Assembly (NCBI GenBank): GCA_963805975.1
Contig: CAWDVR010000001.1
Coordinates: 672,001-736,000, forward strand
Source: an uncultured Acidobacteriota bacterium
GTDB taxonomy: Bacteria > Acidobacteriota > Thermoanaerobaculia > Multivoradales > SZUA-115
Direction of reading: 5' to 3'
DNA length: 64,000 bases
The notes below the pieces were generated by a model. It was not told where the DNA came from, did no database searches, and saw nothing but the letters and a program-made list of their open reading frames with translations. A program made the translations under genes and the position numbers. Positions 40,030 to 57,949 of this stretch are shown one piece after another (position 1 is the stretch's first letter; each line of letters starts with the position of its first letter).

Positions 40030-41496
40030 TCAATTGTCGCCCTGTGCCGGGGCAGTGACCGGCAGGCCAGCGAGAGCTGCATCCCGGTTGGGCTTCGCCA
40101 GCGGATGGTCCGGCATGATGGCGAGCGCCTTGTCGAAGTACTCGACGCTCGCCTGGTTCTCCCCCAGACGATAGAGAAAGTGGCCGTAGGTGTTGTATAT
40201 CGACGAGTCTCGGACCGGAAGTGTCGGCTCCAGCGCCAGGGCCTTTTGATACGCCGCCCTGGCCTTCTCGTGGTTGCCCAGGTTGTCGTTCGCGAGGCCG
40301 AGGTTGAACCAGGCCAGGTAGGAGCTCGGGTGACGCTGGACGAGGGCTTCGAAATCGTGCTTCGCGCCGGCCGAATCTCCCGACATCCGCCGTAGGCGGG
40401 CTTCCTGGAGAAGGAGCGCATCCTCCTCGGGGAAGCTCGTCAGGGCTTCCCCGAGCAGCGTAGCGTAGAGGTTCTCTCTCTGTAGCTGGTAGCTCGCGAC
40501 AGGCGTCTGGAGGCTCATGAGATTCTTGCCGATCTCCTCGGGAACACTCACGTTCTGCCGCACGCCGTAGAGCGCGGCACCCGAAGCCAGCTCCTTGGCG
40601 CTGACCCGGACCAGCGTGTAGTAGCGGTAGAGGCCGCTCTGCGGGTCGCGGGCGAAGGCTGAGCGGACCTCTTCCAGATCCTGGGCGAGGAACGTCGCGA
40701 AGTCCTTGGAGTCGATACCGGCGGCCTCAGGTGTGCTGCTCTCGATGCGGCTGCTGAAGAAACGGATCGCTTCTCCGGCGGCGTTCTTCCGTGAGAGCTC
40801 GCGGGCCTGTCCGAGCGACGAGCTGGTGCCGCTGGCCGTGAAGAACTGCGCGTCGCCGGTGAGCTGCGGTGGCTCCCGCACCCAGGCCGGTACGACCTGC
40901 TCGGGGTCCTGGGCGAACGCCGGCTGCGTGAAGAGCCCGAGGGCTGCGGCGATCGGCAGAGAGTCGACGGAGAAGCGAGCAGCCGTCTTCTCGGCAGACG
41001 ACTTGCCGTCTAGCTCGGCCGCGATCCGGTCGACGGCGCGGAGCGATTCCCGGAAACTGTCGATATACGCCTCGCGATCATCGAATCCTGCGGGCAGCTC
41101 CTGCTGGAGCTTCAGGTCGGCATCCTCGAGGTGGGGTCGCGCACGGTGGCAGGCCGCATTGAGGGTGCCTCTGTCGATCTCGTAGACGGTCGCCTTGACG
41201 ACGGTGATCGCACCGACCAGGATGCCGGCGACGGCCGAGCCCACTTTCGTGACCTTTGCGGTCTTCACCGGCTGGAGAGCCGTGACCGCGAGCCCGAGGA
41301 GTCCGGTGGCGACGGCGAGGCCGAGAACGACCTTGGCGTCCCAGGCCCAGCCCGTGACCATCTCCCGCCGTTCCTCGAGCTGTACTTTCAGCGTGGCAAG
41401 GGCGGGGCTCTCGGTCTGAGCGGCCAGGGCTCCCGCGGCGATGGTCGCCCAGACCGAGATCAACAGCACCAGCGCGAGTCGGTGACGGCAGGTCAT
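40030..41496 (-). CDS. Membrane protein with 2-TM region, LPP20-like segment and C-terminal TPRs
   Basis: Signal peptide, two hydrophobic helices, PAWV..P motif, AWFNLG and IYNTYG TPRs. Confidence 0.7.
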   Translation of the reverse strand: MTCRHRLALVLLISVWATIAAGALAAQTESPALATLKVQLEERREMVTGWAWDAKVVLGLAVATGLLGLAVTALQPVKTAKVTKVGSAVAGILVGAITVVKATVYEIDRGTLNAACHRARPHLEDADLKLQQELPAGFDDREAYIDSFRESLRAVDRIAAELDGKSSAEKTAARFSVDSLPIAAALGLFTQPAFAQDPEQVVPAWVREPPQLTGDAQFFTASGTSSSLGQARELSRKNAAGEAIRFFSSRIESSTPEAAGIDSKDFATFLAQDLEEVRSAFARDPQSGLYRYYTLVRVSAKELASGAALYGVRQNVSVPEEIGKNLMSLQTPVASYQLQRENLYATLLGEALTSFPEEDALLLQEARLRRMSGDSAGAKHDFEALVQRHPSSYLAWFNLGLANDNLGNHEKARAAYQKALALEPTLPVRDSSIYNTYGHFLYRLGENQASVEYFDKALAIMPDHPLAKPNRDAALAGLPVTAPAQGDN

Positions 41497-41607
41497 GGTT
41501 CCTCCGTTGGAATGTGCTCTCGATTTGGACGGACGTGGGCCAGTTTCTTCTCACCAGGCACCGGGCGGAGCCTCTCGAAAAGGTGTGCCGCGCTATCATC
41601 CGGCGCC

Positions 41608-42432
41608 ATGTCGCCCGCGGACGCGATTCACATCCGCTCCTTCTCCTCCGACGCCGACTACGAGGACTGCCTGGCCTTGCAGATGGCGGTGTGGGGGGAG
41701 GACATGCGCGAGTGCGTCCCGCCCCGCATCCAGAAGATCAGCCAGCAGGTGGGGAGCGTCGCTGCCGGCGCCTTCGACGGGCAGCGGCTGGTCGGTTTCG
41801 TCTGGGGCCTGACCGGCGTGCGCAGCGGCCGGTTGGCGCACTGGTCCCACATGCTGGGCGTCCTCCCCGAGGCGCGCGACGGCAATCTCGGCCGCCGGCT
41901 GAAGCTCTTCCAACGGCGGGAGCTGCTCGCGATCGGGGTCGAAGCCGTGTACTGGACCTTCGATCCTCTCGAGAGCCGCAACGCTCATCTGAACTTCAAC
42001 CGGCTCGGCGTCGAGGTGGAGAAGTACGTGCAGGACTACTACGGCAGCGGTGCCACCAGCCACCTGCACAGCGGCCTCGGCACCGATCGCTTCATCGTCG
42101 CCTGGCACCTCGAGAGCGGGAAGACCACCCGCGCCCTGGCGGACGAGCTGCCCGGCGACATCGCTGGCTACGAGCGGGCGCCGGTCGCCAACAGCCTCCT
42201 CTCCGACGACGGCCGCCCGATGCCGGTCGAGTGCGATCCGCCCTCTGTACCGATGCTGCGGATCGAGGTGCCGGTCCACATTCAGGACGTGAAAGCGGCC
42301 GATCCCGAGGCCGGTGCCGCCTGGCGGCGCTCGACCCGCCGCGCCTTCGAGGCTTCTCTCGCCCGGGGCCTGAAGATCGAGGCGTTCTATCGTTCGCCGG
42401 TTTCCGGCCGCAGCTTCTACGTCGCATGCTGA
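41608..42432 (+). CDS. GNAT family N-acyl(succinyl)transferase
   Basis: HWSHMLGV, LKLFQR, WTFDPL..RNAHLNF..LG, TDRF motifs; upstream of NSAR/OSBS. Confidence 0.85.
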   Translation: MSPADAIHIRSFSSDADYEDCLALQMAVWGEDMRECVPPRIQKISQQVGSVAAGAFDGQRLVGFVWGLTGVRSGRLAHWSHMLGVLPEARDGNLGRRLKLFQRRELLAIGVEAVYWTFDPLESRNAHLNFNRLGVEVEKYVQDYYGSGATSHLHSGLGTDRFIVAWHLESGKTTRALADELPGDIAGYERAPVANSLLSDDGRPMPVECDPPSVPMLRIEVPVHIQDVKAADPEAGAAWRRSTRRAFEASLARGLKIEAFYRSPVSGRSFYVAC

Positions 42433-43556
42433 CCCTCGAGACCCTCACCCTGACCGAGATCGGGCTGCCGCTGAAGGAGCCCTTCCGCATCTCTTCGGGC
42501 ACGGTCCGCAACCGCCGCATCCTGCTCGTCGAGGCGCGGGAGAAGGACGGCACCCTGGGCTGGGGCGAATGCGTGGCGGGGGAGGAGCCCTACTTCAGCG
42601 CCGAAACCATCGACACCGCGTGGTTCGCGATCGAGACCTGGCTCGCGCCGCTGGTTCTCGGGCAGAGCTTCGCGCACCCACGCGAGATCTTCCCGCGGCT
42701 CGACGCCGTGGTCCGCGGTCATCTGATGGCCAAGGCGGCGGTCGAGATGGCGGCCTGGGAGCTCGCCTCGACCCTCGCGGGTCAGCCTCTCGCACAGTAC
42801 CTGGGCGGCGAGCGCCGCGAGGTCGAGGTCGGCATCTCGCTCGGCATCCAGGAGAACCCCGGCCGTCTGATCGAAAAGGCGCGGCAGGCGCAGGACGAGG
42901 GCTACCGCAAGATCAAGATCAAGATCGCGCCGGGAGCCGACGTCGAGTACGTCGCCGCGGTGCGCGCGGCACTGGGACCAGCGGCGCCGCTGATGGCGGA
43001 CGCCAACTCCGCCTACTCACCGGCCGACGCCCTCCACCTGGAGCGCCTGGACGCGCTCGATCTGATGATGATCGAGCAGCCGCTCGACCGTACAGACCTG
43101 CTGCGCCACGCGGCCCTCCAGCGCCGGCTCACGACGCCGATCTGCCTCGACGAGTCGATCACCGGCCCGGACCGCGCCGCGGACATGATCGCGCTCTCTG
43201 CCGGCCGCATCGTCAACATCAAGCCCGGCCGGGTGGGCGGCTTCGCGCAGTCGCTCGCCATCCACGATCTCTGCCTGGCCGCCGGCATCCCGGTGTGGTG
43301 CGGCGGCATGCTGGAGAGCGGCGTCGGCCGCGCTCACAACGTGGCACTGGCCTCGCTCCCCGGCTTCTCCAAGCCCGGAGACCTCTCGCCCAGCAGCCGC
43401 TACTGGGAGCGCGACGTGGTGCATCCGGAGTGGACCATGGACGCCGGGCTGGTGCGCGTGCCGCGCGAACGGCCGGGCATGGGCGTCGACGTGGACCGCG
43501 GACGGATCTCCGCGCTCACCGTGCGCCGCTCCGAGCTCTCCGCGGCCACGCGATAG
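42426..43556 (+). CDS. menC: o-succinylbenzoate synthase / N-succinylamino-acid racemase (enolase superfamily)
   Basis: KIKIKI, DANSAY, IEQP, LDESI, NIKPGRVGG, WCGGMLESGVGRA, PGDLS. Confidence 0.88.
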   Translation: MLTLETLTLTEIGLPLKEPFRISSGTVRNRRILLVEAREKDGTLGWGECVAGEEPYFSAETIDTAWFAIETWLAPLVLGQSFAHPREIFPRLDAVVRGHLMAKAAVEMAAWELASTLAGQPLAQYLGGERREVEVGISLGIQENPGRLIEKARQAQDEGYRKIKIKIAPGADVEYVAAVRAALGPAAPLMADANSAYSPADALHLERLDALDLMMIEQPLDRTDLLRHAALQRRLTTPICLDESITGPDRAADMIALSAGRIVNIKPGRVGGFAQSLAIHDLCLAAGIPVWCGGMLESGVGRAHNVALASLPGFSKPGDLSPSSRYWERDVVHPEWTMDAGLVRVPRERPGMGVDVDRGRISALTVRRSELSAATR

Positions 43557-43566
43557 GATCGCCGCC

Positions 43567-44364
43567 ATGGTACCCATCGATCTCTCCGGAAAGCGCGCCC
43601 TCGTCATGGGGGTCGCCAACAGCCGCAGCCTTGCCTGGGCGATCGCCGAGCGCCTGCGCGAAGCCGGTGCCGAGCTCGCCTTCACCTACCAGGGAGAGCG
43701 CCTGAAGGGGGAGCTCGAGAAGCTCACGGAGGGCCTTCCCGGCCGTCGGCTCTACTCCTGCGACGTCACCGTCGAGGCGGAGCTGGCGGCGGTCTTCGAG
43801 GACCTCCAGGCCGCCTGGGGCACACTCGACTACGTGGTGCACGCCATCGCCTTCGCGCCGCGCGCCGCCATGGAGGGCCGCTACATCGACACCACGCGCG
43901 ACGATTGGGTGACGGCGCTCGAGATCTCCGCCTACTCGCTCCTCGCCGTGGCGCGCAAGGCCGAGCCGCTGCTCAACGAAGGCGGAGGCCTGATCACGCT
44001 CTCCTACTACGCCGCCGAGAAGGTAGTGCCCAAGTACAACGTGATGGGGGTAGCCAAGAGCGCGCTCGAGGCCACGGTGCGCTACCTGGCCTACGACCTG
44101 GGGTCGAAGGGCGTGCGGATCAACGCCGTCTCTGCCGGGCCGGTGCGCACGGTGGCCGCGCGCAGCATCCCCGGCTTCATCCAGATGTACAAGAAGGTTG
44201 GCGGCGCCTCGCCCCTGGGCCGAAACGTCACTCACGAGGAGGTGGGCAACCTCGGGCTCTACCTGCTGTCGCCCCTCGCCTCGGGCATCACCGGCGAGAC
44301 GGTCTACGTGGACGGCGGCTTCCACGTGATGGGCATGCAATTGGAAGACAGCTCCTCTCCGTGA
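43567..44364 (+). CDS. fabI: Enoyl-ACP reductase
   Basis: GVANSRSLAWAIA, YNVMGVAKSALE, NAVSAGPVRT, ITGETVYVDGG. Confidence 0.93.
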   Translation: MVPIDLSGKRALVMGVANSRSLAWAIAERLREAGAELAFTYQGERLKGELEKLTEGLPGRRLYSCDVTVEAELAAVFEDLQAAWGTLDYVVHAIAFAPRAAMEGRYIDTTRDDWVTALEISAYSLLAVARKAEPLLNEGGGLITLSYYAAEKVVPKYNVMGVAKSALEATVRYLAYDLGSKGVRINAVSAGPVRTVAARSIPGFIQMYKKVGGASPLGRNVTHEEVGNLGLYLLSPLASGITGETVYVDGGFHVMGMQLEDSSSP

Positions 44365-45587
44365 GCCTCCCGGCCGCCCTCCAGCGGCTCTTCTCTCCTG
44401 AGCTCGAGGCGCGGCTGGTGGCGCTGCGACGGGACCTCCATCGGCATCCAGAGCTTTCCTGGCAGGAGGAGCGGACCGCCGCCCGCCTGGAGGGGGAGCT
44501 CGCCGCGACCGGCGCCACCCAAGTGCGACGAGTGGCCGGCACCGGGCTCGTGGCCCGGATCGCCGGCCACGACCCGCAGGCACCGGTGGTGGCGATCCGC
44601 GGTGACATCGATGCCCTGCCCGTGGAGGAGGCGACCGGCCTGCCTTTCTCCTCCGAGCGCCCCGGCGTGATGCACGCCTGCGGGCACGACGTGCACGCCG
44701 CCTGGGCCGTGGGCGCCGCCGCGCTACTGGCCGGTTCACCGGCCGCGGGCGACGTCCTGGTCCTGCTGCAGCCGGCGGAGGAGGTGGCGGGCGGGGCGCT
44801 CGCCCTGCTCGAATCGGGCGTCCTCGAAGGCGTCGCCACCCTCTTCGGCGCGCACGTGGACCGTCGCTTCGAGGTCGGCCAGGTGGTGGCCCAGGCCGGT
44901 CCGCTGGCCGCGGCCAGCGACCTCTTCGAGATCTCGCTCCGCGGCCGTGGTGCTCACGGCGCCCGGCCGCACGAGGCGGTGGACCCGGTGGTGGGCGCAG
45001 CGGCCCTGATCCAGGCCCTGCAGACGATCATCTCGCGACGCCTCGCACCCGGCGAGCCCGGCGTGGTCACGGTCGGCTCGATCCATGGCGGGCAGGCGGC
45101 CAACGTGATCCCCGAATCCGTCACCCTGACGGGCACACTGCGCGCCACCCGTGCCGCCACGCGCGAGCTGCTGCGCGGGGAGATCTCGCGCATGGCGGGG
45201 GAGACGGCGCGGCTCTACGGGCTCGCGTCCACGGTGCGTTTCTTCGACTCGACGCCGGCGCTCGTCAACCCGGAGCGGGAAGCCGCCTGGGCGCGCGCGG
45301 CGGTGACCCGGGTGCTGGGCCCCGAGGCCCTCGTCCCCCTGGGTGCGCTCAACATGGCGGGGGAGGACTTCGCCTACTACCTCGAGCGCCTGCCGGGCTG
45401 TTTTCTGCGCGTCGGCGCCAGGGAAGCGGGTGGAGAGCCCATCCCCGCCCATTCGCCGCGCTTCTATGCCGCCGAGGAGAGCGTGCTGGTGGGCGCCGCG
45501 GTACTGGCGGAAGCGGCTCGAACGGCATCTCTGGCCTTGACAGCAGCGGCGGGGAAGGTCTACTCTCCAACGTCAAATGCTGGTTGA
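44361..45587 (+). CDS. M20 family amidohydrolase (N-acyl-amino-acid hydrolase)
   Basis: LHRHPELS, RGDIDALP, MHACGHD, QPAEE, GEDF, HSP. Confidence 0.9.
   Translation: MSLPAALQRLFSPELEARLVALRRDLHRHPELSWQEERTAARLEGELAATGATQVRRVAGTGLVARIAGHDPQAPVVAIRGDIDALPVEEATGLPFSSERPGVMHACGHDVHAAWAVGAAALLAGSPAAGDVLVLLQPAEEVAGGALALLESGVLEGVATLFGAHVDRRFEVGQVVAQAGPLAAASDLFEISLRGRGAHGARPHEAVDPVVGAAALIQALQTIISRRLAPGEPGVVTVGSIHGGQAANVIPESVTLTGTLRATRAATRELLRGEISRMAGETARLYGLASTVRFFDSTPALVNPEREAAWARAAVTRVLGPEALVPLGALNMAGEDFAYYLERLPGCFLRVGAREAGGEPIPAHSPRFYAAEESVLVGAAVLAEAARTASLALTAAAGKVYSPTSNAG
45537..45566 (+). promoter_or_regulatory. Candidate sigma-70 promoter inside the 3' end of the M20 gene, upstream of TPR-A
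   Basis: TTGACA (45537-42), 18-nt spacer, TACTCT (45561-66); ATG at 45577. Confidence 0.55.
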
Positions 45588-46551
45588 TCTGTCCTTCGCC
45601 TTCCGTCCACCCACGGCTCTCGCCTCGGAGGACCCCGCAGCCGTTCTTCCAGGAGACGAATTCGAGTCCTTGCAGGCGCGCGGGCAGGCGGCTTTCGACG
45701 CGGGACGCCTGCCCGAGTCGATCGAGCTCCTCGAGCGGGCGCTCGCCTGGGCCGAGGAGCACGGCGACCGCCGGCAGATCGATCTCGGCTTCTGCAACCT
45801 GACCAGCGCCCAGATCGCCCGCGACGAAAAGCGCCCCCTCGCGCCCGCGACCATGCAGCGGCTGCGCGCGGTGCTCCTCGCGAGCGAGGATCTGACCAAC
45901 TGCCGCCTCGCCGCCTACAACCTCGCTCGCGCCTTCGAGTTCATGAGCGACAGCAAGAAGGGCCTGTTCTACGCCCGCATCGCCCTCGATCGCGCGGAGC
46001 TCCTGGGCCGCGCCGACTGGATCGCGTCGAGCCACAACCAGATCGGCAACTTCCTGCTCGCCGACAGCTACTTCGACCAGGCCGCGGCCGAGTACGACGA
46101 GGCCCTGAGCCTCTATCCGCCGGAGGCCGCGCTGCGCCGCGCCCTGGTGGAGGGCAACCTCGGCTACTGCTCGATCGCGCGTGGCCGGGTGCAGCAGGGG
46201 CTCGAGCTGCTGGTTCGCAGCTTCCGGGTCCTGGCGCGGCGCGGCAGTATGACCGACCTTGCCGTGGCGCACGCCGACCTCTGCTACGCGCACCTCGAGC
46301 TCGGTCGCAGCCGCGACGCCGTCCGCCACGGCAACAAGGCGCTGGCGCTCGCCGAGCAGTGCGGCGCCAAGGACGTGGCGAAGAATTGCCTCTACCTGCT
46401 GGGCGCCGCCACCCAGCAGGGCGGCGACCGGCAGGGCGCCCACGACTGCTACTCGCAGCTCCAGGAGCGCTACTACCCGGGCTCGGCCTTCGTCGCCGAG
46501 TTCCTGCTCTCGGTCGACGTCCGCCGCATGATCAATCTGAGGGCCGCATGA
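45577..46551 (+). CDS. Cytoplasmic TPR protein (TPR-A), paralog of 50047-50946
   Basis: TPR helices, no signal peptide; shares LAAY.L.RA.E, LFY.RIA, RADW..S.HN..GN, NLGYC and INL/IK/RA end with its paralog. Confidence 0.85.
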   Translation: MLVDLSFAFRPPTALASEDPAAVLPGDEFESLQARGQAAFDAGRLPESIELLERALAWAEEHGDRRQIDLGFCNLTSAQIARDEKRPLAPATMQRLRAVLLASEDLTNCRLAAYNLARAFEFMSDSKKGLFYARIALDRAELLGRADWIASSHNQIGNFLLADSYFDQAAAEYDEALSLYPPEAALRRALVEGNLGYCSIARGRVQQGLELLVRSFRVLARRGSMTDLAVAHADLCYAHLELGRSRDAVRHGNKALALAEQCGAKDVAKNCLYLLGAATQQGGDRQGAHDCYSQLQERYYPGSAFVAEFLLSVDVRRMINLRAA

Positions 46552-47930
46552 GAACCCTGCTGCGGCCCCTCGTGCTGGTCCTGGCCCTGCTCGTTGCGGG
46601 TACCCCTGCTGCGGCCGAACCGCGCCAGACCGCCCTCGGTACGAACGGCGAGATCTATCGCCTGTTGACCGGGACCTATGGCCAGTTCTTCGGCGCCGGC
46701 CTCACTCCGGCCACCAACCCTGTGTTGGTGCTCGAGATCGTGCGACCGGGCGACCGCCACCCGGACCGCATGCTGGTGCCGGGCACCGAATCCGAAGACG
46801 TCGAGCGCGCCTCTTCGGTGAGCTTCGAGGAGCGCTCGGGGGCCGCCGTGGTCCTCTGGGCGAGCCAGAAGAACTACATTCGGTCGCGCATCAACCTGGC
46901 GACCTTCGACGGGGAGACCTGGTCGGCGCCTATCGAGCTCTCCGGCGACGTCTGGAGCCAGAAGTCCTCGCCGGCTCTCGCGGTGAGCAGCGACACCTAC
47001 CTGACCCGCACCGAGACCGGCACCGCCGCCCACGAGCGCAGGATCTACAACGTGGTGTGGTGGGAGCAGTCCGGTGCCGGGGATCGCGTCGTCTACTCGC
47101 CCGTGGTCTTCGTCGACGGTGCCTACATCGGCTGGAACCCGGTCTTCGTCCTCACCGACCTGACGGACGGCGACCCCTCGTTCGGGGCGCCGCTCCTGGT
47201 GCGCGACGAGCTGCTGCGCGTTCCCACCATCGCCAGCGGCGAGCGTCCGTCGGACTCCGTGGCCGCCTTCGTGCACCCGGCTACCAAGCAGTTGATCAGC
47301 GTCCAGATCAGCTCGCTCGCCGGGGAGATGACCATCCTCGCCGACCAGGTACGAGCCGATCTCACGAGCTTCGGCCAGGCGAACCCCACTGCGGACCTGG
47401 CGGCGCTGGGGGAGCGAGCCCGGCATCAGATCGTTGACTTCGGCGTCCGTCTCGGCATGCACCCCGGTCTGCTCAGCTTCGTGGGTGGGCGGGTCGCCTC
47501 CGGCCTAGCCCAGAACCCGGCGGAGACCTCTCTCGCCTCCCTGGGCGAGAAGGCGCGCCACCAGATCGTCGACTTCGGGGTACGGATGATGGCCCAGGGC
47601 CTCACCGGCGCCGAGGACCTCACGCCCGCCTGGCTGGCGGAGTTCGGCTCGGAACAGTACCCGGCGACCGACGACGGCCAGCCTCTCCACGCGTTGCGGG
47701 TACGCTTGATCGCCGCCCGTCCGGCGCCCCGCACCGAGTCTGGCACCACCTCAGTCTTCCTCTCCGAGAACGGCGAAGACGCCCTGATCGCCTGGCAGGC
47801 CGATGACATGGTCCGCTACTGCGAAGAGTCCAACGGCGAATGGAGCGAGATCCGGCAGCTCCAGCTCAACGCCGACCTCTCCTTGGCCCACGCCTTCGAG
47901 CTGCTGTCGGCGCGGGTTCGGAAGAACTGA
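46548..47930 (+). CDS. Secreted 460-aa hypothetical protein (Sec-A) with duplicated 15-aa peptide
   Basis: ATGA overlap with TPR-A; signal peptide; homologous along its length to 48658-50040. Confidence 0.8.
   Translation: MRTLLRPLVLVLALLVAGTPAAAEPRQTALGTNGEIYRLLTGTYGQFFGAGLTPATNPVLVLEIVRPGDRHPDRMLVPGTESEDVERASSVSFEERSGAAVVLWASQKNYIRSRINLATFDGETWSAPIELSGDVWSQKSSPALAVSSDTYLTRTETGTAAHERRIYNVVWWEQSGAGDRVVYSPVVFVDGAYIGWNPVFVLTDLTDGDPSFGAPLLVRDELLRVPTIASGERPSDSVAAFVHPATKQLISVQISSLAGEMTILADQVRADLTSFGQANPTADLAALGERARHQIVDFGVRLGMHPGLLSFVGGRVASGLAQNPAETSLASLGEKARHQIVDFGVRMMAQGLTGAEDLTPAWLAEFGSEQYPATDDGQPLHALRVRLIAARPAPRTESGTTSVFLSENGEDALIAWQADDMVRYCEESNGEWSEIRQLQLNADLSLAHAFELLSARVRKN
47406..47585 (+). 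repeat. Internal peptide repeat LGE[R/K]ARHQIVDFGVR x2 (47406-47450, 47541-47585)
   Basis: 14 of 15 residues identical, 8 synonymous codon differences. Confidence 0.9.
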
Positions 47931-48029
47931 CGGCACATTAGTCGTTGGTGCCAGACGAAGTCGCCCGGCTTCGAGCGGCAAGACTCTGTTCGTGAATGTG
48001 CGAGCGCTGGCTAGAAAGCATAGGGCAGC

Positions 48030-48610
48030 ATGCCCGAGCACTCGCAGACAGAGTTGAGGGTCTTCAGAGAGTTCGCTCGGTGGGCTCCACTCCAGATCGA
48101 CCAAGACTCCATCCAGAAGAGACAGCCTCCAGAGCCCGATATTCTCTGTAGATCCTCCGAAGGTCAGGAGTTCGCATTCGAGCTGGTGGAGGTCGTTGAT
48201 CCCGATCTAGCTACCGCTGATTCCCGTCAGGTGAGACTTCAAGTTGCGTTGAGCGGGGGCCGGTAGGACGCTGCGTTTAGGCGACAGTACGGCGACGCCG
48301 TTGTCGGAATCACCTTTCAGCGCGAGCTCTCAATGCAGAAACTTTATACTTCAACGTAGCTGCTGTTGAAGCCTTTGCGGATCCCACTCTGAAGACGATC
48401 CGAAGCAAGCTAACTCGTACGTACTCGGTGACGGGGAGTCTCGCCCTGCTGGCCTACTTCAGTGGCCAGCCCATGCATGCCGGAACCGAATGGGGGCTCG
48501 GGCTTGAGGAGCAGATCCGCGATCTTCTTCGCCCCTCGACATTCGATGCGGTCTGGCTGTTCGAGATGAGTTCTGGACGTCTTGTCGAAATCCAGCACTA
48601 TGCTGGGTAA
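48030..48610 (+). pseudogene. Degraded lower-GC gene, possibly PD-(D/E)XK restriction-endonuclease-like
   Basis: PEPDILC..FAFELVE motif; in-frame TAG at 48264-66; frame change near 48340; C-terminal part continues LYFNVAA..KLTRTY..LLAYF..FDAVWLF. Confidence 0.55.
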
Positions 48611-48657
48611 GGCCAAGTTGGCCCAGCAGTAGCAGCGATCTGAGAGCGTCCCCGCGC

Positions 48658-50040
48658 CTACCGCTCACGCACCCGCTGCCGCAGGATCTGCTCTGCTCTC
48701 GCAGCGTCGATGGGGCCTTCGAGGGCGATGCGGCGGGCGGCGGTCCAGCCGGCGTCGCGCGACTCGCGGTAGCGCAGGGCTCCGGTCTCGCTCCAGCTCA
48801 CCACGGCACGCCGTCCGTCCTCTGCCAGAAAGATCCAGATCGGGCCGGCGCCGACGCCGGGGGCGCGGCGCTCGTTGACCAGTCGCAGCCAAACGTGGTG
48901 CGGCCTTCCCTCGACCCCACCCACGGCCGGGGCGCGGATCTCGAGGACGCGGCTCACCGTGGCGGCGTCGCCTCCGGCCAGGCCGCCCTCGCCGAACACC
49001 CGCGCGCCGATCTCGATCATATGGCCGCGTGCGTGCTCGGCCAGCGAGACGACGCTGCCCGTTTCCAGCCCGGTGTCGCGGATGTCGGCTGCTACGTCGT
49101 CGGCCAGGAAGGTCAGGAGGCCCGGGTGCAGGCGGTGACCGATCTCGATCATGTGGCCGCGCGCGTGCTCGGCGAGGCTCACCAGCCCGTCGGCCGAGAA
49201 CAAGTCCTCGTCCGCCTCGATGCGCGCCGCCGTGCCATCGGCCAGCTCGCCCAGCTCGGCCGGCAGTACCCTTGCGTCGAACACCAGAAAGCGCTCGGTC
49301 GCCTTGTTGACGAAGCCCAGGACGACGCTGTTCTCGTCCCGGCCGGACTCCATCCTCGGCGAGCGGAACAGATCGGCCGGCAGCATCATGTGCTGCTGGG
49401 GCACCGCGCTGGCATCGAGGTCGCTCAGGTTGTAGACCTCGTTACGGCCGAGATAGGCGCCGTCGATCAGGAAGATCGGCGTGTAGAAGACCTCTTCGGA
49501 AGAGGCCGCCTTCTCCCACCAGGCCACGTGCAGCACGGTGCGGCTGTGGAGTACGGACGGCTGGCCCGCGGCACCCACCACCTCGAAGTCGTCGCGGGTG
49601 ATCGAGACCTGGGGCGGACCCTTGAGGGGAGCGATGTCGCCGGAGACCTCGAAGACCTGCGACCAGACGCCGCCCTTGAGCCAGGCCAGATTCACCCGCG
49701 AGTGCTGGGGCTGCGGCTTGCTCTCCCAGAACACGAAGAGGCTGTTCGAGGCGTCCTCGAAGACCAGGGCGGGCTGGCCCTCGATCGCCGCGCCGTCGGT
49801 CTCCGGCACCTTCAGGCGGCGTAGCGGCTCGCCGGGGGGCTGCACGTCGATGGCGATCAGGGGGTGGTTGGAGCTCGCCGCGGCGCAATCGGAGAAGAGA
49901 TCGCGGCAGCGGCCGCTCTTGGCCACGTAGATCTCACCGCCCAGGCCGAGCGCGGCGTCGCGGGGCACCTCGGCTACCAGGGCCGGAGAGCCGAGAGCCG
50001 CCAGGGCGGCGAGGGAGAGCAGGATGCGTGCGTGCGACAT
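48658..50040 (-). CDS. Secreted 460-aa hypothetical protein (Sec-B) with duplicated 15-aa peptide
   Basis: Signal peptide; shares ALG..GEIY, SR.NLA, SGD, WWE, DGAY.G.N and HPGLL.F with Sec-A. Confidence 0.8.
   Translation of the reverse strand: MSHARILLSLAALAALGSPALVAEVPRDAALGLGGEIYVAKSGRCRDLFSDCAAASSNHPLIAIDVQPPGEPLRRLKVPETDGAAIEGQPALVFEDASNSLFVFWESKPQPQHSRVNLAWLKGGVWSQVFEVSGDIAPLKGPPQVSITRDDFEVVGAAGQPSVLHSRTVLHVAWWEKAASSEEVFYTPIFLIDGAYLGRNEVYNLSDLDASAVPQQHMMLPADLFRSPRMESGRDENSVVLGFVNKATERFLVFDARVLPAELGELADGTAARIEADEDLFSADGLVSLAEHARGHMIEIGHRLHPGLLTFLADDVAADIRDTGLETGSVVSLAEHARGHMIEIGARVFGEGGLAGGDAATVSRVLEIRAPAVGGVEGRPHHVWLRLVNERRAPGVGAGPIWIFLAEDGRRAVVSWSETGALRYRESRDAGWTAARRIALEGPIDAARAEQILRQRVRER
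49006..49182 (-). repeat. Internal peptide repeat VSLAEHARGHMIEIG x2 (49138-49182, 49006-49050)
   Basis: 15 of 15 residues identical, 6 synonymous codon differences. Confidence 0.9.
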
Positions 50041-50046
50041 GGTGTC

Positions 50047-50946
50047 TCAGGCCTTGATGTTGATCAGTCGCTTGACGTTCAGGAGGAGCAGGAGATCGGC
50101 CACGCCCTCGGCGCCGGGGTAGAACTCCTCCTGCAGGCGGGCGAACTGAGCGCGCGCCGCGAGCGGGTCGCCGGCGAGCTTGAAAGCCTCGCCCAGGAGG
50201 AAGAGGGAGTTCTTGCGCATCTCGGGGTTGTCGATCTCCTCGGACATGCGCAGGGCGGCGATCGCGTGCCGGATGGCGCTGCGATAGCGGTTGATCTCGA
50301 GATAGGCGAAGCAGAGGCTGACCTCGACCACCGGCCTCCAGGCCACGGCGCCCGCCCGGCGGATCAGCCGTAGGGCATCGAAATGGGCCTCGAAGCCCTG
50401 CCGGTAGCGGCCCTGCACCACGTGGCAGTAGCCGAGGTTGTCGAGCGCCAGGGCGCGGCGCAAGGGGTTCTCGTCGGGCAGGGCTGCGATCGCCTGCTCG
50501 AACTCCTTGCGCGCGTCGTCGAACTTGCTGCTCGCCAGGAGCAGGTTCCCGAGCAGGTTGTGAGTCGAGGACAGCCAGTCCGCTCGCTCGGCCTCGCGGG
50601 CGTAGCGGTGGGCGATGCGGGTGTAGAAGAGCGCCTTGGCGCCGTCCTTGGCCACCTCGTAGGCGCGGCCCAGCGTATAGGCGGCGAGGAAGCTGCTCTC
50701 GGGGTCGGAGTTCTTGACCAGGATGCGCCGCAGGTCGGCCTTGACGCTCTCGGTCTCGCCGGTCTCCACCAGATAGGCCGCACGGTTGCACAGCGTGCGG
50801 TCGACCTGCCAGTTCTCGCCGTGCTCGCCGAGCCAGGTGAGGGCGCCATCGAGGATCGCGAGCGCCTGCTGGAGCTGTCCGGCGAGCGCCGCGCTCCACG
50901 CCTCCTGCTTGTAATGCTCGTAGGCTTCGCTGGCGCCGGCGGTCAT
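50047..50946 (-). CDS. Cytoplasmic TPR protein (TPR-B), paralog of 45577-46551
   Basis: TPR helices; clear alignment by eye to TPR-A; ATGA overlap with the upstream XRE gene. Confidence 0.85.
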   Translation of the reverse strand: MTAGASEAYEHYKQEAWSAALAGQLQQALAILDGALTWLGEHGENWQVDRTLCNRAAYLVETGETESVKADLRRILVKNSDPESSFLAAYTLGRAYEVAKDGAKALFYTRIAHRYAREAERADWLSSTHNLLGNLLLASSKFDDARKEFEQAIAALPDENPLRRALALDNLGYCHVVQGRYRQGFEAHFDALRLIRRAGAVAWRPVVEVSLCFAYLEINRYRSAIRHAIAALRMSEEIDNPEMRKNSLFLLGEAFKLAGDPLAARAQFARLQEEFYPGAEGVADLLLLLNVKRLINIKA

Positions 50947-51356
50947 GGGCGAGCTCGAACCTCCGGCATCCGGTGAACCGGTGGAGCGGGCTCGGCGGGC
51001 CGCGGCCCGACGGCAACGGGGGCCGAGGGCCGGCGGCGGGTGATCAGGTGCTGGATCTCGTCCTGGTCCTCGGCCGGCAGGGCGTTGAACTGCTGCAGCA
51101 TCAGCACTTCGCGCGGGCTGACCGCGCCGCCGCGGTCCTCTTCGAAGAACTCCGCGACACTGACCTTGAACTCGGCCAGCATGCGGAACAGGGTGTCGAG
51201 GCTGACGCGGTATTCGCCGCGCTCGATGCGGGAGAGGTCGGACTGCTGGATGCCGATGCGGGCGGCGAGGTCGTTCTGCGTGAGCTTACGCTCCTTGCGC
51301 AGCCGACGAATCTTCCGCCCGACCAGCTCCACCTGCTGAGTTCGCTGTGCCACCAT
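50943..51356 (-). CDS. XRE/Cro family helix-turn-helix transcriptional regulator
   Basis: IRRLRKERKLTQNDLAARIGIQQSDLSRIERG; GGAGG before ATG 51356. Confidence 0.92.
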   Translation of the reverse strand: MVAQRTQQVELVGRKIRRLRKERKLTQNDLAARIGIQQSDLSRIERGEYRVSLDTLFRMLAEFKVSVAEFFEEDRGGAVSPREVLMLQQFNALPAEDQDEIQHLITRRRPSAPVAVGPRPAEPAPPVHRMPEVRARP

Positions 51357-51404
51357 CAGATCGTGGCCTCCGGGAAAGAATGACCCTCGAGGGGTGAACG
51401 CGGC

Positions 51405-51434
51405 GATGCTACAGTAGCATCCAGAACGCGTCAA
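51405..51434 (-). promoter_or_regulatory. Sigma-70 promoter of the XRE operon with an overlapping perfect palindrome (candidate operator)
   Basis: Minus strand TTGACG-17 nt-TAGCAT; GATGCTAC-A-GTAGCATC at 51405-51421 covers the -10 box. Confidence 0.65.
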
Positions 51435-51469: not shown

Positions 51470-52804
51470 ATGAGCGCGCCGGTCTCGCCCAAGATCTTCG
51501 TTCTCGACACCTCGGTCATCCTCTACGACTTCCAGAGCATCCACAGCTTCGAGGAGCACGACGTGGCGGTGCCGATCACCGTCATCGAGGAGCTCGACCA
51601 GTTCAAGAAGGGCGGCAACGTCATCAACCTGCACGCCCGCGAGTTCGTGCGCGAGCTCGACCGCCAGTCGGCCCACCACGATCTGCGCGGCTGGGTGCCG
51701 ATCAACGGCGCGACACGGGGGCGGTTTCGGGTCATCACCGACGAGGGCTCCCGGGTCGACGCCGTGGCGGCCTTCGGCAACCGCAAGAACGACCACCGCA
51801 TCCTGAACGCCGCCCTGGCGCTCGCCGAGCAGGAGAGCGATCGCCGGGTGATCCTGGTGAGCAAGGACATCAACCTGCGGGTGAAGGCCCGGGCCTTAGG
51901 GCTAGAGGCCGAGGACTACGAGACGGTCAAGATCGAGGATCTCGAGCGCCTCTATACCGGCAAGAGCGAGGTGGAGGTGGCGGACGGCGGGCTGATCGAC
52001 CGCCTCTACTCGGAGGGCGCCGTGCCGGCCGAGGAGCTCGGCCTGCCCGAGGCGCCGCCCGCCCACCACTACTTCATCCTGCGGAGCGCGACGCGCTCCG
52101 CCCTCGCCTGCTTCAACCCGCGGACCCAGGCGCTCGAGCGGGTGGTGAAGACCCCGGCCTACGGCGTCCAGCCGCGCAACGCCGAGCAGACCTTCGCGCT
52201 GCACGCGGTGCTCAACCCGGCGGTGCCGCTGGTGAGCCTCTCCGGGCCGGCGGGCACAGGCAAGACGCTCCTCGCCCTGGCCGGCGCCCTGGAGCAGCGG
52301 CGCTCGTTCCGCCAGATCCTCCTGGCACGGCCCATCGTGCCGCTGTCGAACAAGGACATCGGCTACCTGCCGGGAGACATCAACTCGAAGATCAGCCCCT
52401 ACATGCAACCGGTGTGGGACAGCCTGGGCGTGATCAAGGACCAGTTCGGCGAGCGGCAGAAGGAGGCCAAGCGGATCGACGAGATGAGCGAGCTCGGCAA
52501 GCTCCAGGTGGTGCCGCTCGCCTACATCCGCGGCCGGAGCTTCTCGAACATCATCTTCGTGGTCGACGAGGCGCAGAACCTCACGCCGCACGAGGTGAAG
52601 ACCATCATCACCCGCGCCGGCGAAGGCACCAAGATCGTCTTCACCGGCGACATTTTTCAGATCGACACCCCGTATCTCGACGCCCACAGCAACGGCCTTT
52701 CGTACCTCATCGACCGCATCCGCGACAGCCCGCTCTACGCGCACGTGAACCTGGACAAGGGCGAGCGCTCGGAGCTCGCCAACCTGGCGAGCCGGCTGCT
52801 GTAA
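51470..52804 (+). CDS. PIN-PhoH (PhoH2/YlaK-like) protein
   Basis: FVLDTSV PIN start, NDHRIL, SKDINLRVKA; GPAGTGKT, YIRGRS, DEAQN, GD..QID. Confidence 0.92.
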   Translation: MSAPVSPKIFVLDTSVILYDFQSIHSFEEHDVAVPITVIEELDQFKKGGNVINLHAREFVRELDRQSAHHDLRGWVPINGATRGRFRVITDEGSRVDAVAAFGNRKNDHRILNAALALAEQESDRRVILVSKDINLRVKARALGLEAEDYETVKIEDLERLYTGKSEVEVADGGLIDRLYSEGAVPAEELGLPEAPPAHHYFILRSATRSALACFNPRTQALERVVKTPAYGVQPRNAEQTFALHAVLNPAVPLVSLSGPAGTGKTLLALAGALEQRRSFRQILLARPIVPLSNKDIGYLPGDINSKISPYMQPVWDSLGVIKDQFGERQKEAKRIDEMSELGKLQVVPLAYIRGRSFSNIIFVVDEAQNLTPHEVKTIITRAGEGTKIVFTGDIFQIDTPYLDAHSNGLSYLIDRIRDSPLYAHVNLDKGERSELANLASRLL

Positions 52805-52892: not shown

Positions 52893-54698
52893 GTGAGATC
52901 TCCAGGGCCAGGCGAGGCGTCGCCGACTCTCTCGACGAGGTCCGACTTCGAGGGCATCCTCGAAGGGCTCTGGAACGATCCCCGGCGTTTCCACCGCCCG
53001 GCCCACGAGGTGCTCGCCGACCTGCTGAGCTTCGGCGGGCGGCTGCCGCTCGGCGACGGCGCCGACGCCCTGGCGGAGCTCGACCGCCGGCTCTGGGAGG
53101 CGCTGGCCTCGCGGCCCGAGATCGTCCTCTCTCCCGAGCCGCCGAGTCGTGGCACGGTCCTGGAAGCGTTCTCGAACGAGCTCGGCCGGGTGCATCTGCG
53201 GCCGGCGGGGCTGCCGCGGCCGGACTACGGGCCCCGGGCCGGGCCCCACACGCACGGCTGGATCGCGGTGCCGCCGGAGCTCTACCGCGAGGCCCGCGCG
53301 GCAGCCGACGCGGCTCTCGCCGAGGAGGCGGCGCTGCGGACGCGCTGCGACGCGCTCTTCGCCAGCGACCCCGAGCTCGCCGACCCCGACCGGGTGCTCG
53401 ACGCGGTCGACGACGCCGTGCGCCACGTCGAGGCGGTGATGCTCTACCTCGACGACGAGCTGCTGGCCCTGATCGAGCGTCACAAGACGCTGATCGACAG
53501 CAACGGCCGGCCCGGCCTGTGCTCGCGCCTGCGTGGCCGCAACCCCTGCTCGTGGACCTCCGGCGAGCGGCTGGCGGTGGTGGCGCTCCGCGCCCTCTTC
53601 CTCTCTGGCCGCTCGATCCGCTTCGAGGAGTTCAACGGCAAGGAGCTCACTGCGCGGCGGCTGCTGGCCAAGCTCTCGGAGCTGGCGCGGGCCTACGAGC
53701 CGTTCGGCCTCGAGCTGCCGGCCGCGGACGCCGGTCCGCTCGCGCTGGCGGCGAGCATCGGCCGGGCGGCGCAGCGCGCGATCGGCCAACCCCGGCTGCG
53801 GTACCGCTACGTCAACGGCCTCACCTTCTTCAAGGCCGAGCGCTGGACCCGGGTGGCGGACACCCCCGACCTGCCGCTGCCTGCCCGGGTCCTGGCGCTC
53901 CACGAGGCCTGGCTGGGCCGTCCGCCCGAGGGCACACCGGAGGAGGTCTTCGACCGCTTGGCCGAGGCCGCGGTCTATGGCCGCGTGGAGCTGCCCGACG
54001 AGGCGTTCAGCGGCCGGGCCGCGACCACGCCGGTCGAGCTGCTGATGGAGGAGATGGTGGTGGCGGTGCTGTTCGCGGCCGGCGCCGACTACTCGATGTC
54101 GAGCTCACTGCGCGACCTGCGTTGGCTGACGGTCGCGGACCGCGCCGCCCGCCTCGAGGGCATCGTCGATCTCGAGCCGCGGCCGCATTTTTTCTGTGCG
54201 GTGGCCTCGCGGCCTGGGCTGGCGGCCGAGCTCGGCGAGCGCCTGGCGCCGCACGTCTACCACGCCGTGCAGGCGCGGATGGAGTTCAACCGCTGGCATT
54301 TCATCCCCGGCAACTTCCCCGAGAGCGAGGTGCCGCGAACCCGGCACTATTACTATCCGCCGGTGATGCCCGACCTGGCCGAGTGGTCCGACCAACGCCA
54401 CAGCGGCCACAAGCGCGGCGGGGTGCGCTACTCGATCCGCACTCCCGGCCCGGACATGGGGGAGCCGCCGCTGACCCTCGCGGGCCAGGCCTATCGCGGC
54501 TTCTACGACCTGCGCGCCGTGCGTATGGAGGGGTCGCCGTTCAATGTCGCCGAGATGCTCGCCGTCCGCCGGCTGCGGGTGTGGCTGGGGTTGCTCTGGC
54601 GGCGGATCTTCGAGCGCTCGGAGGCCGAGCCGGGTTCGGTGGTGATCCGCGGCTTCGTCACCGGGAGGGGCTACGAGCCGGCGGGCGAGGAGGCATGA
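52893..54698 (+). CDS. Hypothetical 601-aa protein, first gene of a putative biosynthetic operon
   Basis: Long ORF with plausible codon usage; motif-like RMEFNRWHFIPG and PDLAEWSDQRHSGH; stop overlaps next ATG. Confidence 0.7.
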   Translation: MRSPGPGEASPTLSTRSDFEGILEGLWNDPRRFHRPAHEVLADLLSFGGRLPLGDGADALAELDRRLWEALASRPEIVLSPEPPSRGTVLEAFSNELGRVHLRPAGLPRPDYGPRAGPHTHGWIAVPPELYREARAAADAALAEEAALRTRCDALFASDPELADPDRVLDAVDDAVRHVEAVMLYLDDELLALIERHKTLIDSNGRPGLCSRLRGRNPCSWTSGERLAVVALRALFLSGRSIRFEEFNGKELTARRLLAKLSELARAYEPFGLELPAADAGPLALAASIGRAAQRAIGQPRLRYRYVNGLTFFKAERWTRVADTPDLPLPARVLALHEAWLGRPPEGTPEEVFDRLAEAAVYGRVELPDEAFSGRAATTPVELLMEEMVVAVLFAAGADYSMSSSLRDLRWLTVADRAARLEGIVDLEPRPHFFCAVASRPGLAAELGERLAPHVYHAVQARMEFNRWHFIPGNFPESEVPRTRHYYYPPVMPDLAEWSDQRHSGHKRGGVRYSIRTPGPDMGEPPLTLAGQAYRGFYDLRAVRMEGSPFNVAEMLAVRRLRVWLGLLWRRIFERSEAEPGSVVIRGFVTGRGYEPAGEEA

Positions 54699-55706
54699 GA
54701 GGAGGCCGGCGACGCCTGGCGGTCCTGCTGCTGGTCGACCCGGAGGTGGTCGCCGCCGAAGACCCGCAGTTCTCGCGGCCCACGGGCAGGGCGAGCCGGC
54801 TGGAGGCGCACGTGGCCGCGGGGCTGCGCCGGTCCGGGCACGCGGTCGAGGTGTTGCCCTGCGGGCCGGGGGGAGAACGGCTGCTCGAGAGCCTGATCGC
54901 GGCCGGGTGCCGGACCGACCTGGTCTTCAACCTGACCGAGCACTTCGCCGGCGACCGCCGGGGAGACGCGTTGGTGGCGGCGGCGCTCGAGCTCCTGGGC
55001 CTGCCCTACACCGGGAGCGGGCCGGAGGCGCTCCTGCTGTGCCGCGACAAGGCCGAGTCCAAGCATCGCCTGCGGCGGGCCGGCCTGGCGGTGCCGGAGT
55101 TCGCCGTGCTCGAGCCCGGCGGGCACGATCTCTCGCCGCCTGCCCTACCCGGTGCTGGTCAAGCCGCGCTTCGGGGACGCCTCGGAGCTGATCGCCGCCG
55201 CCTCCCTCGCGGCGAGCCCGGCGGCGGCGGCGCGGCGGGCGCTCCAGGTGCAGCGGGTCACCGGCCAGGCGGCGATCTGCGAGGCGTACGTCCCCGGCCG
55301 TGAGCTCAAGGTGGCTGTCTTGGGAGGCGCCAGGCCGCTCGTGCTGCCGCCCCGCGAGGTGCACTTCGGCAGGCGCGGCGGGCCGGGGTTCCTCACCGCG
55401 CGCGTCAAGAACGACGCCGCCTACCGCCGGCGCTGGAACATCCGCTACCGGCGGGCGAGGCTCGCCCCGCGGACCCTCGCCGCGGTCGAGGAGGCGAGCC
55501 TCGCGGCCTACCGGCTGCTCGGCCTGCGCGACTACGGCAAGCTCGACCTGCGTCTGACGGCGGAGGGCGAGGCCGTCTTCATCGAAGCCAACCCCAACCC
55601 CGACCTTTCGCCGACCGGCTTCGGGGCGATCGCCTCCTGGGCCGGGATCGGCTACCCTGAGCTGCTCGACCGTATCGCCCGCTCGGCCTTGGAGAGAGCC
55701 CCCTGA
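54695..55706 (+). pseudogene. D-Ala-D-Ala ligase-like ATP-grasp enzyme, frameshifted near 55130 (real or sequencing error)
   Basis: Frame 1: DLVFNL, LELLGLPYTGS, DKA; +1 frame: LPYPVLVKP, EAYVPGRE, LGLRDYGKLD, IEANPNP. Confidence 0.8.
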
Positions 55707-56701
55707 TCGATCTCGCCCGCGACTACCCGACGTTGGCGCGCCTGACCCGCGCGGCGGAGGACGGCTCCCTCGCCGACCTCGAGCTCGCGCCAGACGGCCG
55801 CTGGCAGACCCGCGCCGTCACCCTCGCCGGGCTGACGCGCGAGGTGGCGGCGCACCTCGCGGCCACGCTCGGGAGGCACGAGCCGGAGGATCTCCCGGTC
55901 TTCGTCGTCGCCTGGGGCAAGTGCCGCGTCGGCTCCACCGCCCTCACCAACCTGTTCGGCATCGCCGGCGTGCCGGCCTTCTACCAGCCGGTCAAGACCA
56001 CGGCGCGCCACCTGCTCGTCGGGTCCCAGCCGCCGCCCTGGGAGCCGCCGTCGGCGAGCGAGCATCCGCTGATCATGGCCAAGGAGATGGCCGGCCCCTA
56101 CCTGGCCGTCGAGACGGTGTTCAACCCGCTCGCGATGCTGGTCGACGCTGGCTACCCGGCCGCCAAGCTCCACCTCCTGGTGCTGGAGCGCGAGCCCCTG
56201 GTCTCGCTCTCCTCGTGGCTCCACAAGTGGGCCGACCGGCTGCCGCGCCGCACGCTGGTCGAGCACTTTGCGCTCTCTTCGCTCGCCGCGCCGCGCATGG
56301 AGGCCTGGGCCGGGGAGTATGGCGTGCCGGTCACGCACTACCTCTACGAGGCGAGCCGCCGGCCGGAGCAGACCATCGCCGCCCTGCTGGCGCGCCTGGG
56401 CATCGGCGAGAAGTTCCGTCCCGAGGTGGTCAACGACTGGGACGAGCGCGGCGAGCTCGGCTCGGAGCGCTCGCTGATCTTCTTCCCGCGCGAGCCCGAG
56501 GTCTACGTGGTGCCCGGTCTGCACTCCTCCTTCACCCGCTATGCCTTCCAGCCGCGGGCGGCCTCGAACCTCATGGCGGAGGAGCGGCGCCTGGTCGAGG
56601 AGTTGGGCCTCGAGGAGCTCTACGCCCGCTCGGCGCGCGCCATGTGCGAAGAGCTGGGCTTTGACGAGGAGCTGGCGCGGGCCGTGCTCGCCCCGGGCTG
56701 A
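55703..56701 (+). CDS. Sulfotransferase-fold protein
   Basis: PAPS-binding-like WGKCRVGSTAL and REPLVSLSSW, then LYE; start either CTG 55703 (overlaps upstream stop) or TTG 55733. Confidence 0.7.
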   Translation: MIDLARDYPTLARLTRAAEDGSLADLELAPDGRWQTRAVTLAGLTREVAAHLAATLGRHEPEDLPVFVVAWGKCRVGSTALTNLFGIAGVPAFYQPVKTTARHLLVGSQPPPWEPPSASEHPLIMAKEMAGPYLAVETVFNPLAMLVDAGYPAAKLHLLVLEREPLVSLSSWLHKWADRLPRRTLVEHFALSSLAAPRMEAWAGEYGVPVTHYLYEASRRPEQTIAALLARLGIGEKFRPEVVNDWDERGELGSERSLIFFPREPEVYVVPGLHSSFTRYAFQPRAASNLMAEERRLVEELGLEELYARSARAMCEELGFDEELARAVLAPG

Positions 56702-56711
56702 AGGCCGGCCG

Positions 56712-57923: not shown

Positions 57924-57949
57924 ACTCGCGTCGTTACGTGCGACAACCG

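Follow-up and report, generated by a model that had tools for sequence, protein, structure and literature searches.

Two paralogous modules and the conserved unit behind them

A 64,000-nucleotide (nt) stretch of contig CAWDVR010000001.1 (assembly GCA_963805975.1, positions 672,001 to 736,000 of the forward strand; hereafter the window), from an uncultured bacterium of the Acidobacteriota class Thermoanaerobaculia, carries two paralogous modules in which the gene for a tetratricopeptide repeat (TPR) protein stands before the gene for an exported protein, here called Sec. On the forward strand, module A consists of TPR-A (45577..46551), a predicted cytoplasmic TPR protein of 324 amino acids, and Sec-A (46548..47930), an exported protein of 460 amino acids with a signal-peptide-like N-terminus, the two genes overlapping by 4 nt. 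Module B lies on the reverse strand and comprises the gene for an XRE-family regulator of 137 amino acids (50943..51356), TPR-B (50047..50946; 299 amino acids), and the exported paralog Sec-B (48658..50040; 460 amino acids); the two modules converge on a 727-bp spacer. The coordinates of all five genes and the paralogy of the modules agree with an earlier description made from this DNA alone (the original prediction). TPR-A and TPR-B are 38–40% identical and Sec-A and Sec-B 31–33%, the Pfam cut-offs were passed by TPR_12 and HTH_3, and a third copy of the module was not found in the same genome.

As judged from gene order and predicted open reading frames (ORFs), the conserved unit is the operon XRE-TPR-Sec, which almost every sampled genome of the class contains. 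The Sec family was present in 54/61 related genomes and, across the class, in 276 of the 301 sampled genomes (258/279 good ones), a tally that includes matches from the unpublished genomes G064, G148, G176, G213, and G217, which were otherwise unused. Among the sampled families of the order, f4 is the only one in which no carrier was found (0/10 near-complete genomes). In 74 loci of the order, 88 hits of the Sec profile correspond to 87 ORFs, of which 86 directly follow a TPR gene, the single miss being at a contig end; XRE precedes TPR in 53/86 of these modules. After removal of ORFs shorter than 300 amino acids or without the N-terminal part (e.g. the frameshifted L141b, L145, and L188), a further set of loci (L105–L262) had TPR upstream of 156/156 Sec ORFs and XRE upstream of 145/156. 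Because the Sec and TPR alignments were too variable, the XRE alignment served for the DNA-pattern search for loci in the genome collection, and in loci anchored on XRE alone TPR follows XRE in 72 of 78. The synteny of TPR and Sec proposed in the original prediction is therefore borne out (86/87 and 156/156), as is the export of one partner only: according to a hydropathy heuristic, rather than SignalP, the N-terminus is hydrophobic in 239/242 Sec homologs, 3/242 TPR proteins, and 0/198 XRE proteins.

By contrast, the proposal of one stand-alone XRE shared by both modules did not hold, the XRE of the window being that of module B and the orthologue for module A lying on another contig of the same genome (C5). 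The C5 gene (G000:C5:533014-533487; L302) is an orphan with its own operator site, located between genes for an M23 peptidase and an ABC-2 permease, and its product is 77–82% identical to the XREs that precede TPR-A orthologs in relatives. Because it resembles these XREs and adjoins the M23 peptidase gene, which is a common operon neighbour elsewhere, we conclude that module A parted from its own XRE and that the C5 site is likely the former site of module A. The convergent twin layout was rejected as a conserved feature because, among the loci of the order, it is limited to this genome (G000), G001, and G004; elsewhere a module stands alone, or the modules are in tandem, divergent, or located on different contigs. 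The operon is chromosomal, and the genes most often next to it encode an M23 peptidase-like protein, an exported protein, a sigma factor, and an ABC-2 permease. An unnamed exported family of ~430 amino acids with a PAATLLLPYF motif (e.g. L307:1191-2471) is a neighbour in 93/165 loci; it has 4–9 matches per related genome, one copy lies behind the operator, and it has no Pfam or NCBIfam match.

Outside the class, partial hits of the Sec profile were found in 25/271 genomes and matches to the TPR query in 22/271; both tallies include the unpublished G456, and G064 is counted in the class part of the Sec-profile tally. Twenty loci from outside the class comprise 13 with a split XRE-TPR-Sec unit, two with a fused XRE-TPR before a weak Sec homolog, three with Sec alone, and two that are unrelated. 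An alignment of the fused TPR to the family spans 268 columns (probability 98.7). In another apparent XRE-TPR fusion (P0175) the middle seems to be out of frame, and this fusion was left out of the evidence. We also noted fused XRE-TPR regulators (L291:2184-3377 and L293:2102-3304) before genes for small exported proteins that contain stretches of DGPVPPP or GPDPIPS and, in family f28 (L285, L289, and L290), short exported homologs of ~225 amino acids without an adjoining TPR or XRE.

An octapeptide in the exported protein and its co-variation with the TPR groove

According to the original prediction, each Sec protein holds two copies of a module-specific 15-mer; the two copies were confirmed, and the 15-mer was not, the specific part being eight residues. 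In Sec-A, the octapeptide ARHQIVDF occupies residues 291–298 (47418..47441, forward strand), followed by Gly, and residues 336–343 (47553..47576, forward strand), and 4/8 codons differ between the copies. In Sec-B, ARGHMIEI occupies residues 293–300 (copy 1; 49141..49164, reverse strand) and 337–344 (copy 2; 49009..49032, reverse strand), with 2/8 codons differing. When copies were picked by the family profile, and not by self-similarity, 75/86 Sec proteins had at least two; in these, copies within a protein are 0.81–0.93 identical over eight consecutive positions, while between proteins the identity is 0.22–0.80, as expected from the proposal that the repeats co-vary within each protein. Within-protein identity falls to 0.44–0.58 at positions −4 to −1 and to background outside about −4 to +9, and Gly follows the octapeptide in 177/182 copies. 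Identical copies, at least two per protein, occur in 66 proteins (two in 49 proteins, three in 16, and four in one), and these proteins have 61 different octapeptides. Over 103 identical copy pairs, 2.4 of the eight codons differ, compared to 3.2 expected if the copies were independent, and 12 pairs are without any difference. Because of these codon differences, we conclude that it is mainly the protein sequence that is kept identical, and there is some indication of recent copying. Arg is at code position 2 in 60/66 long and 63/79 short codes (see below), and the paralogs within a genome carry different codes in 18/18 pairs, 2–7 residues apart; modules A and B likewise differ, consistent with the two specificities in one genome that had been proposed.

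For the Sec proteins, no match was detected in Pfam, NCBIfam, or PDB sequence searches, and an Atlas search gave no name for them. The structural model of Sec-A (predicted local distance difference test score (pLDDT) 92) has a beta-rich, propeller-like body into which four helices are inserted at residues 259–350 (47322..47597, forward strand), and this predicted four-helix bundle is not present in the short homologs of other orders. A fold search with Sec-A returned generic propellers only (Z 11–15 at 5–14% identity; best Z 15.0, root mean square deviation (rmsd) 4.3, 251 residues aligned), and any likeness to BNR/sialidase-type beta-propeller enzymes is of this generic kind. The copies lie within helices 2 and 4 in the Sec-A model and mostly within helices 1, 2, and 4 in relatives; from helical periodicity, code positions 1, 5, and 8 would point towards the interior of the bundle. 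Across the class the carrier is 320–490 amino acids long. In other orders it is a bundle-less protein of 320–371 amino acids with a single motif, e.g. MRRHIPIV or SRAHVPIG, that hhalign places in register with the long-form repeat; the same alignment did not support the alternative of a match between this motif and the long form's H381 strand. Position 6 of the short-form motif is Pro in 67/79 homologs, which disfavours a helix.

The model of TPR-A is an all-helical repeat superhelix, and its predicted groove is lined by columns F40, L52, N74, R110, N154, Q155, N158, N194, D234, N270, and N320 (TPR-A numbering). An Asn ladder (N154, N194, N270, and N320) and D234 are conserved in 82–100% of 188 TPR proteins. 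In a fold search, the best matches were tied among LGN (Z 23.4), Pins (23.3), NprR-NprX (23.0; rmsd 4.3, 282 aligned), and the Rap proteins (22.4–22.6). LGN/Pins (GPSM2) are also the best natural sequence matches, and the sequence match to RapF is weak (E 2.4e-5) and no closer than that to LGN/Pins. Prediction of a complex of TPR-A (residues 24–324, with alignment) and Sec-A residues 326–356 gave a score of 0.02 (mark 0.32), and the controls were unfolded; it is evidence neither for nor against binding.

Co-variation was mapped on 66 discovery pairs of Sec and TPR proteins. The best TPR partners of the code positions were 234 for position 1, 158 for position 2, 155/159 for position 4, 110/151 for position 7, and 52/29/40 for position 8, and the map also pairs position 3 with columns 190/193/230; code positions and partner columns run in reverse (antiparallel) order along the repeats. 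Against 310 columns of the Sec body, the pair of code position 4 and Q155 ranks first and that of code position 7 and R110 third. Seven rules were then written down beforehand and tested on new pairs, namely 43 long pairs less than 85% identical to the discovery TPRs out of 60 long pairs with a code. Counted as both/code only/TPR only/neither, D7-R110 gave 25/1/0/17, E/N4-R155 3/0/0/40, V/T8-Y52 6/2/1/34, H4-L/F/M/Y155 23/6/2/12, and V6-F/G40 4/5/0/34. In the 79 short single-copy homologs, D7-R110 gave 3/0/0/76, and position 8 with Y52 gave 14/0/38/27 as registered and 52/6/0/21 when widened to small residues. We also considered pairs that are independent on a FastTree tree of 188 TPRs, which included the discovery rows and from which the pocket columns had been removed. 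Among these, D7-R110 changed the same way in 12.4/16 and never oppositely (p 0.0005), and small8-Y52 and E/N4-R155 each had p 0.008. The modules of the window follow the D7 and position-4 patterns, TPR-B having F at column 110 and L at column 155 as the rules predict for E7 and H4; S234 of TPR-B is an exception to the A1-D234 rule.

The proposal that the repeats co-vary with TPR pocket residues thus extends to pairs on which the rules had not been built. The original prediction had named invariant or independently varying structural helices as the outcome that would speak against it; the long-form repeats are predicted helices, yet they are neither invariant nor independent. Because the same rules hold in helix-embedded and in proline-containing copies, the TPR protein most likely reads an extended octapeptide free of the folded carrier. 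Taking groove columns, rules, and their antiparallel order together, we consider it very likely that the TPR protein binds the peptide directly, extended and antiparallel, making TPR-A the candidate receptor for ARHQIVDF and TPR-B that for ARGHMIEI. As a separate observation, family f14 has extra TPR-Sec pairs without XRE (L214, L216, and L262; tandem in L214 and L216), in which N74 and Y114 are lost from the TPR proteins and motif position 4 is W, F, or Y.

The XRE protein, its candidate operator, and the surroundings of the locus

The palindrome YTATGYYRNWNYRRCATAR occurs at 12 bits or more in 141/164 XRE upstream regions compared to 4/492 shuffles, with a matrix trained on these same regions, and lies mostly 12 or 39–49 bp behind a TTGAC box. 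In the window, the candidate operator is a palindrome of the ATG-N9-CAT type with 17 bits (51404..51422) that overlies the −10 box of a sigma-70-type promoter match, TTGACG-17-TAGCAT (51406..51434, reverse strand), for the XRE-TPR-B-Sec-B operon; no palindrome was found before TPR-A. From the position of the sites and the near-invariant recognition helix of XRE, we infer that XRE binds this palindrome.

In the genome of the window, 16 operator-like sites have at least 13 bits, and this count is not above that of permuted matrices (mean 18.7); therefore, only position and conservation of the sites are informative. All 16 lie 15–170 bp before an ATG-started frame (controls: mean 7.0, maximum 11), nine precede signal-peptide-like starts (controls: mean 1.4, maximum 4), and two are those of the XRE genes themselves. 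The predicted targets include an exopolysaccharide (EPS) sugar transferase, a subtilase, a BNR/TPR protein, an amidohydrolase, and unnamed exported proteins. Seven targets were traced into five relatives: the site precedes 5/5 orthologs of the EPS sugar transferase and 0/3 of its paralogs, 4/4 orthologs of an exported protein of 441 amino acids, 2/2 of the BNR/TPR protein, and 1/1 of another target.

The spacer between the modules (47931..48657, forward strand) lies outside the conserved unit, has a lower GC content of 58%, and contains a broken frame of an unknown family, with an ORF of 78 amino acids (48030-48266), an in-frame stop, a second frame to 48610, and, by eye, a PD..ExxE-like motif; neither a Pfam match nor a homolog was found for it. 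Upstream of module A, the run at 41131-45587 has genes for an enoyl-ACP reductase and an M20 peptidase and, by eye, GNAT-like and o-succinylbenzoate synthase/racemase-like genes. The M20 peptidase gene overlaps the start of TPR-A, and this run adjoins only about 7–8 of 165 loci. The exported protein encoded at 40030-41496, in which an internal stretch is hydrophobic and the C-terminus contains TPRs, has no relation to the modules. On the other side, a PIN-PhoH (PhoH2-type) gene (51470-52804) is divergent from XRE and 66 bp away from the operator site, and downstream of it lies a cluster of unusual genes (52893-59053) that includes, by eye, ATP-grasp-like and sulfotransferase-like genes.

Candidate peptide signalling, its alternatives, and known systems

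We lean towards the interpretation that the modules are peptide-signalling systems in which an octapeptide cut from an exported carrier is re-imported and bound by its own TPR protein, which switches the linked XRE. Specifically, the carrier would be exported and the octapeptide excised after export; it would re-enter the cytoplasm, perhaps via an oligopeptide ABC system, for which two genes for SBP_bac_5 peptide-binding proteins offer a possible import route; and, once bound by the cognate TPR protein, it would alter the action of the latter on XRE at the shared palindrome. By analogy to RapLS20 acting on RcoLS20, the TPR protein probably acts on XRE as an anti- or co-repressor. That the peptide passes from one cell to another and signals density or kinship is a rather likely extension of this scheme. 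In this genome, the two codes and the two XREs, one of them on contig C5, would feed one regulon.

Several observations weigh against this interpretation. The Acidobacteriota are diderms, and the peptide would have to return across two membranes. Because the carrier is large (320–490 amino acids) and confidently folded (pLDDT 92), excision of the octapeptide requires a protease, and among the conserved operon neighbours there is neither a processing protease nor a transporter. Co-variation between XRE and TPR was not above background (top z 6.7, the same as the 6.7 for unrelated Sec-body columns), and some columns outside the code reached the scores of code columns in the discovery set (S255-L75, 6.7). 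As for the rules, A/T1-D234 was weak on the new pairs (37/2/2/2, p 0.04; 0.07 without duplicates), V/T8-Y52 fitted the short forms only once it had been widened post hoc, and a charge swap between R4 and D/E155, seen by eye in the short forms, failed (9/15/16/39, p 0.6) and was rejected. Outside the class, candidate motifs with I8 adjoin Y52, contrary to the position-8 rule, and we therefore claim no code there. The number of operator-like sites in the genome is no higher than for permuted matrices, the site precedes only 1/8 and 1/12 homologs in two paralog-rich families, and it is absent before the single subtilase homolog found (0/1). Finally, the TPR fold is as close to eukaryotic LGN/Pins as to RRNPP receptors.

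The main rival explanation is that the module is a self-addressed sensor, in which the TPR protein reads the code of its own partner on precursor that failed to be exported, or on fragments from periplasmic proteolysis or unfolding, and reports export capacity or the state of the envelope to XRE, much like the partner-switch logic of ExsE/ExsC or FlgM. This explanation accounts equally for all the co-variation evidence, and it fits a folded carrier of 320–490 amino acids, needlessly large for a pheromone, a carrier gene that is chromosomal and near-universal in the class, predicted targets that are exported proteins and EPS genes, and an operon to which no dedicated importer or protease is linked. 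A sensor of this kind would, however, have no need for 61 codes in 66 proteins, for orthogonal paralogs, or for 2–4 identical copies with sharp ends, and the pattern of codes resembles the diversified Rap-Phr alleles described in PMC5199041. Overall, we regard it as unlikely, if the most serious of the rivals.

Three further explanations account for less than either signalling or a self-addressed sensor. If the TPR protein were a dedicated cytoplasmic chaperone or holdase that binds the motif before export, with XRE regulating the operon and other exported genes independently, the strict adjacency of TPR and Sec would be accounted for, as would the separation of TPR-A and Sec-A from their own XRE in G000, G001, and G004 and the lack of clear XRE-TPR co-variation; the rapid divergence of the code would not, nor would the position of XRE before TPR in 145/156 loci and its fusion to TPR in two distant loci, and to our knowledge it is unusual for a Sec substrate to need a chaperone of its own, making this explanation improbable. 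An adjacent, polymorphic, and co-varying pair is also what a toxin-immunity or contact-dependent self-recognition system would provide, the exported protein or peptide harming or marking neighbours and the cognate TPR protein neutralising it. We consider this very improbable because domain, sequence, and fold searches found no toxin or enzyme domain, the distribution is vertical and core with one to two copies, specificity resides in only eight residues, and the regulator linked to the operon has a wider regulon. Least probable of all is a purely structural role of the repeats, as helices that recent duplication or gene conversion has made alike, with the TPR co-variation reflecting shared ancestry. 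The location of the copies in amphipathic helices of the predicted bundle agrees with this, as do the 12/103 identical pairs without a codon difference and the mean of 2.4, below the expected 3.2; against it, identity ends sharply after position 8–9 with unrelated flanks, most copies have silent-site differences, and the rules held on new pairs, tree-independent pairs, and the bundle-less short forms.

We also compared the modules to known systems. The original prediction had likened them to RRNPP systems, for which passages of PMC10075063 give a propeptide of 10–100 amino acids, a receptor of 250–500 amino acids, and a host among the Bacillota. The receptors are of that size (TPR-A 324 and TPR-B 299 amino acids) and contain TPRs, and the receptor gene adjoins a partner with a Sec-type signal-peptide-like N-terminus. 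According to passages of PMC3601992, Rap proteins use Asn for the peptide backbone and Asp for Arg2, and in the modules an Asn ladder and the Asp D234 are likewise conserved, and Arg stands at peptide position 2; also shared are allelic codes and peptides duplicated within a gene, as far as PMC10075063 and PMC5199041 describe them. Unlike in RRNPP systems, the partner is 460 amino acids in the window and 320–490 in the class, far above 100, the host is not a member of the Bacillota, and the helix-turn-helix (HTH) domain is encoded by a separate gene. In the signalling interpretation the operon works like an RRNPP circuit, and yet, because of the size of the propeptide and the host, we do not file it as a member; nor is RRNPP ancestry proven by the fold, because the TPR fold is equally near LGN/Pins. 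The latter have an Asn-lined groove for extended peptides and are eukaryotic scaffolds for motifs within cytoplasmic proteins, with no exported partner and no operon. The closest parallels in organisation are RapLS20-Phr*LS20-RcoLS20 of pLS20 and RapI-PhrI-ImmR of ICEBs1, which, according to passages of PMC3814332, have a TPR protein without HTH, an adjacent peptide precursor, and a separate Xre-type repressor, are located on Bacillus mobile elements, and in the case of PhrLS20 start from a 44-residue pre-pro-protein that yields a pentapeptide. The modules share with them the HTH-less TPR protein, the adjacent exported partner, the separate XRE gene, and, as proposed here, the route of export, maturation, and import; unlike pLS20, they have a folded carrier of 320–490 amino acids that contains an octapeptide, a TPR protein of ~300 amino acids, and a predicted regulon of exported proteins, and they are chromosomal in a diderm class rather than on a conjugative element with transfer genes. 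In a literature search that covered few subscription journals, none of the papers listed described this arrangement, and none dealt with RRNPP systems in Acidobacteriota.

At its broadest, the signalling interpretation describes class-wide peptide communication in diderms, with a pheromone locked in a folded, exported propeller protein, present as a single copy in most orders and as 2–4 identical copies in the new bundle of this order, set free outside the cytoplasm through proteolysis or unfolding, and with dozens of dialects that converge on one XRE operator and a regulon of exported proteins and exopolysaccharide; we put this full picture forward tentatively. Peptide signalling by TPR receptors has, according to passages of PMC10075063, been described for the Bacillota and mobile elements and is sought by means of a small propeptide. 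What the locus suggests is that a diderm class, most of it uncultured, uses this logic in a core system and carries the signal within a large folded protein; if this is true, such systems are invisible to all searches for small propeptides. The locus supplies candidate peptides, a residue-level receptor code that is predictive on new pairs, a candidate operator, and a first regulon. The more than 100 natural peptide-receptor pairs may serve for the study of how specificity diverges, and they would offer a route to similar hidden signals in other phyla.

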